A DNA stretch of 64,000 nucleotides from an uncultured Candidatus Saccharibacteria bacterium. Lineage in GTDB: Bacteria > Patescibacteriota > Minisyncoccia > Phycocordibacterales > DATGWK01. The stretch covers positions 2,198 through 66,197 of the forward strand of contig CAYHIR010000003.1 of NCBI GenBank assembly GCA_964356815.1, in the 5' to 3' direction. A program made the translations under genes and the position numbers. Positions within the stretch are counted from its first letter, which is position 1. Each line of letters starts with the position of its first letter. The notes under the pieces were generated by a model, which was not told the origin of the DNA, ran no database searches, and saw nothing but the letters and a program-made list of their open reading frames with translations. Below are positions 57,468-60,226 of this stretch, piece after piece.

Positions 57468-58517
57468 TCATCTATCGAAGCTCGTGATTTTATCAATTTT
57501 GTTCTTTATTACCCTTCCTCTGCAATGTTCCAGCATGCCAAGATACGAATTAGTAGATTGTCTAAAAGAGTATTCAGAGATTAATTCCCGATCAAATTCT
57601 TGCCGCCGGTTTTCAAGTTTTCTTAGTATTCTATTTTTAGTTTTTGTTCTTAAGATCTGATGATAAGGGAAAATTACATAACCCAAAAAATCTATGCCTT
57701 GAGACCATTTTCGGATAATAATTTTGTTTGGATGTAATTCAAGCGCTAGATCTTCTTTTAAAAATTTACTTATTACCGGCAAAATTTTATCAAGATAATC
57801 TTTATTTCTGGATAGGATCACGAAGTCATCGGCATAACGAATATAATCCTTCACGCCCAATTCTCTTTTTACAAACTGATCAAATGCATTAAGGTAGAAA
57901 TTTGAAAATAATTGGCTGGTAAGATTGCCGATTGGAATGCCTTTGCCTGGCTCAGTTTCAAAGCTAGAAATAATATCTCGCAACAAATCTAAACTCCGAC
58001 CTTTTATCTCCTTCGCCAAAAAAGTAAGAAGAATTTTCTGATCTACGGAGTCAAAAAATTTACGGATATCACATTTAAGTACCCAGACGGTCTTTGTATT
58101 ATTTCTGGATAGCCTCCAAGCAAATTTTTTAAACCTTTCATGTGCCTTGTGTATTCCCTTGCCTGTCCTTGAAGAATAGGAATCGAAAATAAAACTCCTG
58201 TCGAACAAATGCTCAAGAACACGAAATATCGCGTGGTGAAAAAGTCGGTCCCTTACTTTAGCTTTGTGAATTTTCCTGCGCTTGGGATCACAAACAAAAA
58301 AAGAAGAATACGGATGGTGATTATACTCAGAATGGATCAAATCCCGATGAAGCCCAAAGACGTATTCTTCGACATCAATAGAAAAACTCGCGACATCTTG
58401 CTTTTTTAGCTTGCCTCTTTTAAACTCACCCCACGCAGAAAACAAATTTGGTAGAGAAATAATTTTATCGAATAATCCATATCTATGAAGGCTACCCCCC
58501 CCCCGAAATTCCACCAC
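57468..58517 (-). CDS. Diversity-generating retroelement (DGR) reverse transcriptase
   Basis: 349 aa. RT motifs: LKCDIRKFFDSVD (A), GIPIGNLTSQLFSNFYLN (the DGR-diagnostic [I/L]GxxxSQ replaces QGxxxSP), IRYADDFVIL (YADD). It aligns along its length to the Bordetella phage bRT pattern. It starts at GTG and runs through a G10 tract (codons 5-8). Confidence 0.9.
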   Translation of the reverse strand: MVEFRGGGSLHRYGLFDKIISLPNLFSAWGEFKRGKLKKQDVASFSIDVEEYVFGLHRDLIHSEYNHHPYSSFFVCDPKRRKIHKAKVRDRLFHHAIFRVLEHLFDRSFIFDSYSSRTGKGIHKAHERFKKFAWRLSRNNTKTVWVLKCDIRKFFDSVDQKILLTFLAKEIKGRSLDLLRDIISSFETEPGKGIPIGNLTSQLFSNFYLNAFDQFVKRELGVKDYIRYADDFVILSRNKDYLDKILPVISKFLKEDLALELHPNKIIIRKWSQGIDFLGYVIFPYHQILRTKTKNRILRKLENRRQEFDRELISEYSFRQSTNSYLGMLEHCRGRVIKNKIDKITSFDR

Positions 58518-58896
58518 GCAAAACCCTGATGGCTCTATTGTTCATAAGGTATATGATTTTTATACTTTTCTGTACGCTTATATAAAATTATTTCCGAAGA
58601 AAGACCAGTATACATTAGGAATTCGTCTCGAAACATTGACAATAGAAATATTTGAACTCATGCTTCTGGCTCGAGCAAAAACAGGCATGAGTAAAGGACT
58701 CATACTTCACAAAATAGATCTTAAAATAAAACTGTTAAAACTACTGATTCGGATGTCTTTTGACGTTAAAGCTCTGTCTCAGTCAAAATACATTTCTCTA
58801 GAAGAAAAACTCTTAGAAATAGGAAAAATGCTTGGTGGTTGGATTAAGCAACATAATACAAAAGAGCCCCAAAAGAATACGGAGCTCTTGAGTTAA
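58489..58896 (+). CDS. avd: DGR accessory variability determinant (Avd); 5' end unresolved (frame open from 58489, no in-frame ATG until TTG 58636)
   Basis: The frame translation is ...VYDFYTFLYAYIKLFPKKDQYTLGIRLETLTIEIFELMLLARAKTG...LEEKLLEIGKMLGGWIKQH. The helix pattern and the EIGxMLGGWI motif match Avd four-helix-bundle proteins. An upstream ATG at 58485 is one nucleotide out of frame across the C10 tract 58495-58504. Confidence 0.7.
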   Translation, partial: RLPPPRNSTTQNPDGSIVHKVYDFYTFLYAYIKLFPKKDQYTLGIRLETLTIEIFELMLLARAKTGMSKGLILHKIDLKIKLLKLLIRMSFDVKALSQSKYISLEEKLLEIGKMLGGWIKQHNTKEPQKNTELLS

Positions 58897-58900
58897 CACT

Positions 58901-59017
58901 TCGGGAGAAGCAAGCACCCAGGTTGTCATTCCGATTCCTCGGGTTGTCGTTGTTGACCTTCACGCCGTTCTCGTCGAAATTACCGACATTGACCAGGTTG
59001 CCGTTCGAGGAACGCTT
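58901..59017 (-). repeat. DGR template repeat TR1 (117 bp)
   Basis: It is identical to VR1 except at 16 positions, all of which are T on the plus strand and A on the minus/coding strand. The minus-strand translation is Asn-rich (KRSSNGNLVNVGNFDENGVKVNNDNPRNRNDNLGACFSR). The ORF-track entry 58844..59086 is this element, not a gene. Confidence 0.9.
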
Positions 59018-59224
59018 CAATTTTTTTATACCTCCCCATCCAAGCAACGATATTTCGCTTGCCTTTAAGAATTCGGCAAGGGTCATATCTGTAATAATAT
59101 GCGTGCAATCTTTAAATCAATTTCACCTGCACCAGGAAAGTATAAGCAGTGTTTAGTGTGGCGAATGCGATCCTTAAACCACATTCATTTAGCCTTTTTC
59201 AGGATAGCATAAAAAAGAAAAAAC

Positions 59225-59254
59225 GCAGGACATCCGAAGAGGACTATCCTGCGT
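59225..59254 (-). other. GC-rich hairpin plus T-tract downstream of VR1 (DGR target hairpin / terminator)
   Basis: On the minus strand: CGCAGGAtagtcctcttcggatgTCCTGCG, followed by TTTTTT. Confidence 0.55.
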
Positions 59255-59305
59255 CTGAGTGTGTCAGTGTCCCTAATCGGGCCACCGACATCACTCACAC
59301 AAGGC

Positions 59306-60226
59306 TCACAGTTCACCGTTTCCACCGCGGGAGAAGCAAGCACCCAGGAAGTCATTCCGACTCCTCGGGTCGTCGCGGGCGACCCTCACGCCGTTCCCGT
59401 CGAAATAACCGACACTGACCAGGCCGCCGTTCGAGGAACGCTTGTTGGTCCAGGTCCAGACGTTGGGCAGGAGGCGTTCGTGATTGATCGCCTCGTACAT
59501 CGTAATGACTGAGAGCACTTCGACCGGTGAAGGTCGGAAGAATTTACTCATCTTGAGGTTGGCGAGCTGCTCTGCAGCCTTCTGCCAGTCCTCGTCCATG
59601 AGCTTCTCGATCGCCTTGCGGGAACCTTCGAACTCATCAATCGCCGCCTGAGCATAGCTTGGCATCTGATTGCCAAACACTTCGCCGAGGTGACTCACGA
59701 GGACCGGCGTCTGTTGCAGGTAATTCTCGCCGAGAGATCCGTGAAGAACTTCCCGTGTCAGCAGTTTCCAACGGCCCACAGGATTGTCTCCTGTGTAAAA
59801 CGGCTCTTCCCGATACCATTTGGTGTTGTAGAAGAGAGGTTTGCCGTCGGAAGTCTTGTTCTGCCGCCGATCGTGTATCATGGCCATCGTGAGCTCGGGA
59901 ACCTGAAAGGTCAGGACCTCTCCAAGCCGACGAGCTGTCTGCAGTTCCCCCTCCGAGAACGGAATGGGAGAAACCTTGTCCGCGGGGATTTCGATCCCGA
60001 AAACCGTTTGGATTTCCCCGGGACCGAACACGTCGGTACCACGAGTGAAGAGCCGCTGAGCAAATTGTAGGCTTGCCCCTGCCTTTGCCTTGGTGACAGT
60101 TGTCATGACTGGAATCTCCTTGTGTGAGCGATGAAAAGGGCTGATCATACATAGCCAACAAGGCAGTGTATGAGGAATTTTTCCTCTGCTATTGTAGCAT
60201 AGATTCAGGTCGTTTGTCAAACTCAA
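59306..60226 (-). CDS. DGR variable (target) protein with a C-type-lectin/FGE-like fold C-terminus carrying VR1 (59327..59443)
   Basis: The C-terminus is ...NVWTWTNKRSSNGGLVSVGYFDGNGVRVARDDPRSRNDFLGACFSRGGNGEL. The VR ends about 13 nt before the stop. The start may be the internal MTTVTKAKAG (60103). Confidence 0.8.
   Translation of the reverse strand: MSLTNDLNLCYNSRGKIPHTLPCWLCMISPFHRSHKEIPVMTTVTKAKAGASLQFAQRLFTRGTDVFGPGEIQTVFGIEIPADKVSPIPFSEGELQTARRLGEVLTFQVPELTMAMIHDRRQNKTSDGKPLFYNTKWYREEPFYTGDNPVGRWKLLTREVLHGSLGENYLQQTPVLVSHLGEVFGNQMPSYAQAAIDEFEGSRKAIEKLMDEDWQKAAEQLANLKMSKFFRPSPVEVLSVITMYEAINHERLLPNVWTWTNKRSSNGGLVSVGYFDGNGVRVARDDPRSRNDFLGACFSRGGNGEL

Follow-up and report, generated by a model that had tools for sequence, protein, structure and literature searches.

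Two kinds of diversity-generating retroelement (DGR) are the closest described counterparts of the locus analysed here. The DGR of Bordetella phage BPP-1 (8ub7 and following) has the order mtd-avd-TR-brt, in which TR is the template repeat and brt encodes the reverse transcriptase (RT). Among the DGRs of the candidate phyla radiation (CPR), architecture B3, TR-(avd)-RT with avd on the reverse strand, accounts for 90% of those surveyed by Wu et al. (2018, NAR 46:11, PMC5758913); in the same work TR and RT may be on different strands, so that co-transcription is not required. DGR clade 2 of Roux et al. (2021, PMC8144416) is restricted to the CPR and has targets without recognisable domains. The stretch analysed here, 64 kb of contig CAYHIR010000003.1 from an uncultured Candidatus Saccharibacteria bacterium (hereafter the window), almost certainly carries a chromosomal DGR of this Patescibacteria (CPR) type, laid out as target with its variable repeat (VR), TR, inverted avd and RT. 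DGRs of this kind are known and common in the CPR, and the window adds one further example. The features on which the analysis turns are as follows.

59306..60106, minus strand: DGR target gene, 266 amino acids, ATG start, with an upstream AAGGAG Shine-Dalgarno-like motif
59323..59443, minus strand: variable repeat (VR), 121 nt, the final ~40 target codons; 16 differences from TR, all at TR adenines
58897..59017, minus strand: template repeat (TR), 121 nt, 33 adenines
58485..58896, plus strand: avd; Avd domain 58537..58896; ATG 58485..58487 in frame only at a tract length of 9 or 12
57468..58545, minus strand: DGR reverse transcriptase; assembled ORF (open reading frame) 57468..58517 with a GTG start; ATG 58545..58543 in frame at G9 or G12 only
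58495..58504, both strands: homopolymer tract, G10 on the minus strand and C10 on the plus strand, where the 5' coding regions of RT and avd overlap antisense

Components and layout of the retroelement

The initial annotation of this DNA had called the element a DGR, and the call holds: a DGR-type RT, an Avd and adenine-only TR/VR differences in the C-terminal part of the target gene are all found. The RT ORF (57468..58517, minus strand) encodes 349 amino acids, matches RVT_1 at E 4e-22 and contains both motifs attributed to it, IGNLTSQ (as IPIGNLTSQ) and YADD. Its nearest solved relative and top match in the PDB is the Bordetella phage DGR RT (bRT; 8ub7_A, E 1.4e-37, ~300 residues aligned), while group II intron and retron-type RTs match far more weakly, at ~1e-16. 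All ten bRT residues that were checked are kept in the window RT (K29, F66, R74, I76, D138, I181, G182, Q187, D215 and D216); in cryo-electron microscopy structures these residues are catalytic or touch the template or dNTP (bioRxiv 10.1101/2023.10.23.563531). Judged by motif 4 of the form [I/L/V]GxxxSQ, the ranking of PDB matches and these residues, the enzyme can be assigned by similarity to the DGR type.

An avd gene on the plus strand between TR and RT had also been proposed, and a profile search matches it over the full length of the Avd profile. The listed ORF (58636..58896, 86 amino acids, TTG start) covers just the C-terminal two thirds of that profile. Extended upstream to 58537, the same frame yields 119 amino acids that match positions 3-104 of 104 in NCBIfam DivGenRetAVD (E 1e-21; 77 bits, slightly below its 80-bit cut-off) and score 59.8 bits against Pfam bAvd (cut-off 40). 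Sequence similarity to Bbp7 (4dwl) is marginal (E 0.34), and the window Avd has been deposited only as 78- and 86-residue fragments labelled 'hypothetical protein'. A promoter-like site on the plus strand (TTGGTA-17-AATAAT, 58448..58476; a consensus match only) ends 9 nt before the avd ATG at 58485, with no Shine-Dalgarno-like motif between the two, and the avd mRNA could be leaderless.

TR and VR are direct repeats on the minus strand that align without gaps at an offset of 426 nt. Recounting their differences gave the number originally reported, 16, all of them adenines in the minus-strand copy of TR, with zero differences at other bases over 121 nt. Given 33 adenines in 121 nt, the chance that 16 random mismatches would all fall on A is 3.3e-11. 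The pair had been delimited as 58901..59017 and 59327..59443 (117 bp); the repeats are real, but these limits enclose only 15 of the 16 differences. As the sixteenth A-difference lies at 58900 and the first non-A mismatch at 58896, the repeats are placed at the coordinates listed above. The adenines are concentrated at positions 1 or 2 of the VR-frame codons (32 of 33), and TR contains seven AAC and four AAT codons. Close to the 3' end, a GC-rich, A-free block of 20 nt (CTGGGTGCTTGCTTCTCCCG, 58902..58921) is the same in TR and VR, and the similarity between the repeats ends 6-10 nt beyond it. This IMH-like block is compatible with the initiation of mutagenic homing element (IMH/IMH*), which is defined functionally. 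The stop codon of the target follows 17 nt beyond the end of VR, in agreement with the earlier placement of the VR at the 3' end of the target ORF.

All parts of a DGR are thus present, together with the footprint of past adenine-specific homing. The initial annotation had gone further and called the cassette complete, which is doubtful: the assembled avd offers no ATG, GTG or TTG from which the whole of Avd could be translated.

The inverted avd, at first regarded as unusual and non-canonical, is the norm in the CPR and needs no special explanation. The order of TR (58897..59017, minus strand), Avd domain (58537..58896, plus strand) and RT (57468..58517, minus strand) is that of architecture B3. 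We surveyed 90 loci encoding relatives of the RT, 79 of which had enough upstream DNA for an avd call. Immediately upstream of RT, 75 of these 79 carry the gene on the opposite strand; it is on the same strand in three (Melainabacteria, 32-34% identity) and absent from one. TR/VR pairs with A-only differences were recovered at 42 loci; 41 of these have avd between TR and RT, and 40 have VR upstream of TR, at a median spacing of 465 nt compared with 426 nt in the window. The nearest RT relatives (46-64% identity) share the layout of the window, and no difference in layout separates it from CPR B3.

With the B3 and clade 2 DGRs (PMC5758913, PMC8144416) the window shares gene order and strands, a target with a C-terminal VR upstream of TR and without a recognisable domain, and a chromosomal location in a groundwater Patescibacteria genome. 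Common to the window and BPP-1 are a homologous RT, an Avd homologue, adenine-specific mismatches, adenines in the first two positions of codons, a block rich in GC and free of A at the 3' ends of TR and VR, and a stem-loop just 3' of TR. Unlike in BPP-1, avd lies on the other strand and downstream of TR, so its 3' codons are not available as the upstream RNA segment that they provide in the phage element. The two further differ in that the region after TR is antisense to avd in the window, that the 5' ends of RT and avd overlap there, and that the window element is cellular whereas BPP-1 is phage-borne.

The window sequence is identical to Hainich groundwater contigs (ENA ERZ1292625 Hain_H41; Logan ERR3858121) and to a Patescibacteria metagenome-assembled genome at NCBI (RT MEK7185410.1, target MEK7185412.1). 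Named close homologues of RT and of Avd all belong to Patescibacteria. No second RT or avd occurs in the 64 kb, and Rfam has no match in 57000..60500 at E <= 1. Within the cassette (57468..60106) the G+C content is uneven, at 57% in the target gene and 36% in RT, compared with 46% over the whole window; this strong difference suggests differing histories for the RT/avd module and the target.

The G tract in the overlap of RT and avd

The G10 tract is the sole G/C run of at least 8 in the window. It occupies codons 5-8 of the RT ORF and lies 33 nt ahead of the Avd domain on the opposite strand, in the middle of an antisense overlap in which the initial 15-20 codons of RT and avd face each other codon for codon. 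On both strands an ATG is found on the far side of the tract: that of RT (58545..58543) lies antisense to the His codon in 'IVH' of Avd, and that of avd (58485..58487) lies antisense to the His codon in 'SLH' of RT. Simulation of the reading frames at varied tract lengths yielded three classes.

Tract of G9 or G12: RT in frame with its own ATG (MNNRAIRVLRGGISGGGSLHRYGLF...); Avd in frame with its own ATG (MKATPPRNSTTQNPDGSIVHKVYDFY...)
Tract of G10, as assembled: RT in frame only with GTG 58517/58514; avd ATG frame with a stop after 14 codons, and the domain without a start
Tract of G8 or G11: RT without a start; Avd without a start

Tract length is thereby predicted to set the RT and avd frames jointly. 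In the assembled sequence the C10/G10 tract leaves the ATG of avd (58485) out of frame by one base, and no ATG, GTG or TTG precedes the 119-residue domain frame. Full-length Avd homologues carry M..PP(P) leaders (e.g. MESTPPQQSRRFVIHKVYAFY) that resemble the predicted G9 product. A non-canonical avd start (ATT 58537) was considered as a family trait and rejected: a canonical start is absent in only 6 of 71 relatives, all six carry a G tract, and a frame break at the tract explains them better. No description of a G/C tract in the 5' overlap of RT and avd was found in the literature searched, which did not cover Paul et al. (2017, Nat Microbiol).

Comparison with relatives shows that the site, taken as the 90 nt before RT codon 16, is rich in such repeats. 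Among 80 loci including the window, a G-run of 7-14 (mode 10) occurs in 41, (GA)n in four and (GT)n in three, so that 48 loci bear a repeat. Across 475 kb of related loci, G/C runs of at least 8 number 42 in the 96-nt interval around the tract and one in the other 467 kb. Because (GA)n and (GT)n replace the G-run, any slippery repeat is favoured as the conserved property over a particular peptide or a G-specific structure. An in-frame start for RT is missing from 12/47 repeat-bearing loci compared with 0/29 without a repeat (p = 0.002); when starts are judged more leniently, one or both of the ORFs still lack one in 19/46 repeat-bearing loci compared with 4/28 without (p = 0.02). In 26 of 27 loci, RT and Avd share the length class that brings an upstream ATG into frame, because both overlaps are codon-aligned antisense. 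Only 3/26 loci are assembled in the class in which both genes would be ON (p = 0.011 against one third).

One pair of relatives from different samples, L051 (contig Ga0051980_10038825) and its counterpart L054 (Ga0210043_1012537), is identical over 2438 nt except for G10 versus G9 in the tract and 17 N's in the VR of L051. In L051 the VR spans 381..501 and the G tract 1303..1312. The 17 N's are the only ones in the contig, and all lie opposite TR adenines; they appear to be an assembly-level trace of DGR activity, which would make the clade active in nature. The variable spots of this pair are exactly the VR and the tract, within the same architecture as in the window.

Simple-sequence-repeat contingency loci include the poly-G tracts of phase-variable genes in Campylobacter and Neisseria. 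The tract described here resembles them in several respects: it is a homopolymer of 8-14 G in a 5' coding region, other repeat units occupy the same site in homologues, relatives mix in-frame and out-of-frame alleles, and one near-identical pair differs in tract length. It is unlike them in that a single tract lies in two divergent, antisense-overlapping ORFs and is predicted to set both frames.

If the window element works like its homologue in Bordetella phage, an RT-Avd complex would bind a minus-strand RNA that comprises TR and the adjoining stem-loop, and would reverse transcribe the TR RNA while misincorporating opposite adenines. The mutagenised cDNA would then replace VR and could recode up to ~16 C-terminal codons of the 266-residue target protein, for which a C-type-lectin-like fold is weakly predicted. 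Comparative anatomy suggests that the slippage-prone G tract would gate or throttle RT and Avd together, with the consensus state of the genome being avd-OFF. From this we infer that the tract may act as a slippage-prone, phase-variable switch or throttle on DGR activity. We tentatively postulate, at somewhat less than an even chance, that in about half of the clade's DGRs one hypermutable repeat (G8-14, (GA)n/(GT)n) gives the hypermutation machine stochastic, heritable ON/OFF or throttle control, the window being avd-OFF and one slippage (G10 to G9) away from ON. Secondarily, the TR RNA would be a short autonomous unit, made up of an upstream motif, TR and a terminator-like hairpin and able to persist where no RT lies nearby, as in a second template repeat of the window (TR2).

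Extent of the TR RNA and alternatives to the proposed tract control

The TR is followed by a further conserved element.

58852..58889, minus strand: post-TR stem-loop and U-rich tail; 10-bp stem 58889..58862, tail UUUUGU; -16.2 kcal/mol, z -4.8

This stem-loop begins 8 nt after TR and is contained in the complement of the final 11 avd codons. With a detector that tolerates stems running into the T-run, an equivalent hairpin and T-run was found 3-43 nt after TR in 41/43 loci (median folding free energy -14 kcal/mol), against ~0.19 expected per such stretch; the hairpin sequences themselves diverge widely between loci. 'Avd-binding stem-loops' have been predicted just downstream of TR in 207/278 DGRs, CPR members included (Handa et al., bioRxiv 10.1101/2023.10.23.563531), and the post-TR hairpin is likely to be a stem-loop of this putative class. 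Since its form is terminator-like, it may also end the TR RNA. In the literature searched, again exclusive of Paul et al. (2017), no description of such a terminator-like form was found.

The hairpin bears on the earlier claim that a transcript from TR to RT must run antisense through avd. With a conserved hairpin and T-run directly after TR, a short separate TR RNA is possible and need not traverse avd, which weakens the claim and does not settle it. In its fullest form the claim would have a single long minus-strand transcript carry TR, antisense avd and RT, with the ~350-nt avd-antisense spacer required in the functional DGR RNA. Such a requirement has a precedent in the Bordetella phage DGR, which needs 140 nt downstream of TR (the Sp segment) and in which TR-Sp-brt is contiguous (bioRxiv 10.1101/2023.10.23.563531). 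Between 58862 and 58545 no convincing separate minus-strand promoter for RT was found, and the shortness of the U-run after the hairpin (UUUUGU) makes read-through plausible. The near-universal hairpin and T-run in the clade nevertheless speak for an end of the RNA at this point, and TR2 (35783..35909) keeps the same hairpin and T-run and is then directly followed by ndk, with neither avd nor RT. No conserved long-range pairing between the region upstream of TR and the avd-antisense region was found, and the strand independence of TR and RT in other DGRs (PMC5758913) likewise argues against an obligatory joint transcript. On balance, we consider the long transcript conceivable but doubtful.

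The search for long-range pairing was modelled on a duplex of the 'cPRT Stop' type, in which the 60 nt preceding TR would pair with the avd-antisense region, and this candidate was rejected. RNAduplex gave a median z of -0.2, which is no signal; the best ungapped helices between the two regions reached p <= 0.05 in 0/43 loci; and pairing to the antisense of the 'LGGW' motif was no better than in controls (own 15.6, further-upstream 16.8, cross-locus 15.9).

TR2 belongs to an RT-less TR/VR pair on the minus strand (VR2 36277..36403), with repeats of 127 nt and 80% identity. The two copies differ at 25 positions, 16 at TR2 adenines and 9 elsewhere, the IMH-like 3' end holding 4 of the latter. 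An ORF of 250 residues (36265..37017, minus strand) terminates with VR2; it has no Pfam match and is 57% identical to the DGR target of locus L027. TR2 retains the upstream motif of its sub-family as well as the hairpin and T-run (about 35770..35725). Two readings fit this pair: a DGR in decay, or a TR on which the RT 21 kb away acts in trans. No further VR for TR1, the template repeat of the cassette, or for TR2 occurs in the window.

For the tract itself, an alternative is that it has no regulatory role. The G-run would then be a by-product of encoding Gly-Gly-Gly in RT and Pro-Pro-Pro in the Avd leader, or a length error, and Avd would be made constitutively from ATT 58537 or through fixed ribosomal or transcriptional slippage. 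Indeed, the codon-aligned antisense of GGG is CCC, so that dual coding forces a homopolymer; many RT homologues have GGG near their N-terminus; assemblies are prone to errors in homopolymers; and the VR of L051 is heterogeneous despite an 'OFF' consensus. The replacement of the G-run by (GA)n or (GT)n in 7 loci nonetheless indicates that no particular peptide is conserved, and tract lengths are spread over 7-14, the commonest being 10 and not 9. To restore the ON class, some loci would need a shift of +1 and others one of -1, which counts against one fixed programmed frameshift, and broken frames are enriched among repeat-bearing loci. As to a length error, the same G10 is found in three assemblies at ~21x coverage. 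A tract without any role is for these reasons unlikely, if far from negligible.

Several observations weigh against a switch all the same. Dual coding of GGG and PPP alone would favour a G9 core, and when any canonical start is allowed, both ORFs are startable in 27/46 repeat-bearing loci. The agreement of the RT and Avd length classes is a consequence of shared geometry, not a sign of selection for a switch. Every public copy of the locus is identical and G10, with no variation in tract length or VR among copies; exact-protein look-ups and cluster listings for population variants returned identical G10 copies only, and no G9 or G12 form of Avd. The one-base difference in a G10 run between the assemblies of L051 and L054 could be a sequencing or assembly error. 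Both of their tract states, moreover, leave avd out of frame although the VR of L051 is heterogeneous, so that expression from 'OFF' DNA may occur, transcriptional slippage being one route; the heterogeneity has to be put down either to a minority of ON cells or to slippage in the course of expression.

Quite improbable is a decaying, inactive DGR whose avd frame break is permanent and whose TR/VR differences are a fossil of past activity: the unusable avd start, the fragmentary database entries for Avd, the lack of VR variants among public copies and the 9 non-A differences of the RT-less TR2/VR2, which attest to DGR decay in this genome, are outweighed by the zero non-A differences over 121 nt of TR/VR, an intact RT with all checked residues kept, an open Avd domain that matches the full profile, a break within a tract that is conserved at the exact spot in half of the relatives, many of them likewise out of frame, and the live VR heterogeneity of the out-of-frame relative L051.

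To our knowledge, how cells restrain their DGRs is largely unknown, above all in uncultured Patescibacteria. If control by the tract is true, a conserved slippage-prone repeat that gates RT and Avd would be a simple answer to this question. Standard gene calling fails at these tracts, where avd and the N-terminus of RT are cut short or overlooked, so DGR catalogues may score tract-bearing cassettes as avd-less or avd-defective.

Long (GA)n/(AG)n repeats also occur inside the RT ORF of three relatives, L021 (1597..1617), L050 (3146..3161) and L066 (2205..2244), 525-1043 nt after RT codon 16, and are candidate further slippage sites.

Target gene, neighbouring genes and other repeats

The target gene is framed by two putative regulatory elements, and a third lies beyond RT.

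60191..60220, minus strand: target promoter-like site, TTGACA-18-TACAAT with TG before the -10 hexamer; 11/12 consensus positions, a consensus match only
59208..59256, minus strand: post-target hairpin and U-run in intrinsic-terminator form; stem-loop 59256..59221, -21 kcal/mol, z = -5.1
57395..57410, minus strand: terminator-like hairpin and T-run between RT and rpsL

We place the start of the target at ATG 60106 and not at TTG 60226, because homologues begin with MTT or MST and TTG 60226 falls inside the promoter-like site, which lies 85 nt upstream of ATG 60106. The hairpin and T-run downstream of VR had been pointed out before and are real, as 0/200 shuffled sequences fold equally well.

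The target protein matches no Pfam or NCBIfam family and has no sequence-level match to any solved PDB structure. The top match of its predicted fold is TvpA, a DGR variable protein, albeit a weak one, and several proteins of the formylglycine-generating enzyme (FGE) fold are also among the matches; the VR segment of the model has low confidence. Treponema denticola TvpA (2y3c), of the C-type lectin/FGE type, is 10% identical in sequence to the window target. The C-type-lectin- or FGE-like C-terminus attributed to the target earlier accordingly finds its closest counterpart in TvpA, through a weak match only, and the prediction weakly suggests a C-type lectin/FGE-like fold.

After RT come rpsL, rpsG and fusA, on the same strand as RT. 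The cassette had been described as occupying the position upstream of rpsL where rpoB and rpoC normally sit. The three genes do follow RT, but the position is idiosyncratic: S12 (rpsL) adjoins the DGR in 0/90 related loci. No ORF of rpoB or rpoC size is present within the 64-kb window.

An intergenic repeat of ~80 nt occurs at 25214..25294, 53972..54052 and 56326..56406, with an inverted copy at 16469..16516 and related copies at 46550..46597 and 52241..52288. Its sequence is GACTCTGCGGAGGCGCT.GGCGCCGAGC.GGAGGAAAA.TTTCA.CAGAAA.TTATTCCGTGC, found in both orientations. Copies flank fusA, one of them lying between fusA and rpsG, and the repeat could be an element like repetitive extragenic palindromes or miniature inverted-repeat transposable elements (REP/MITE-like), or a shared regulatory element. 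A further unit of 41 nt is present in two copies (52819..52859 and 53877..53917); made up of a GC hairpin (AAGCCCCGCGCGATGCGCGGGGCTTTTT) and then TTGACA/TTGCCG, it looks like a terminator plus promoter module.

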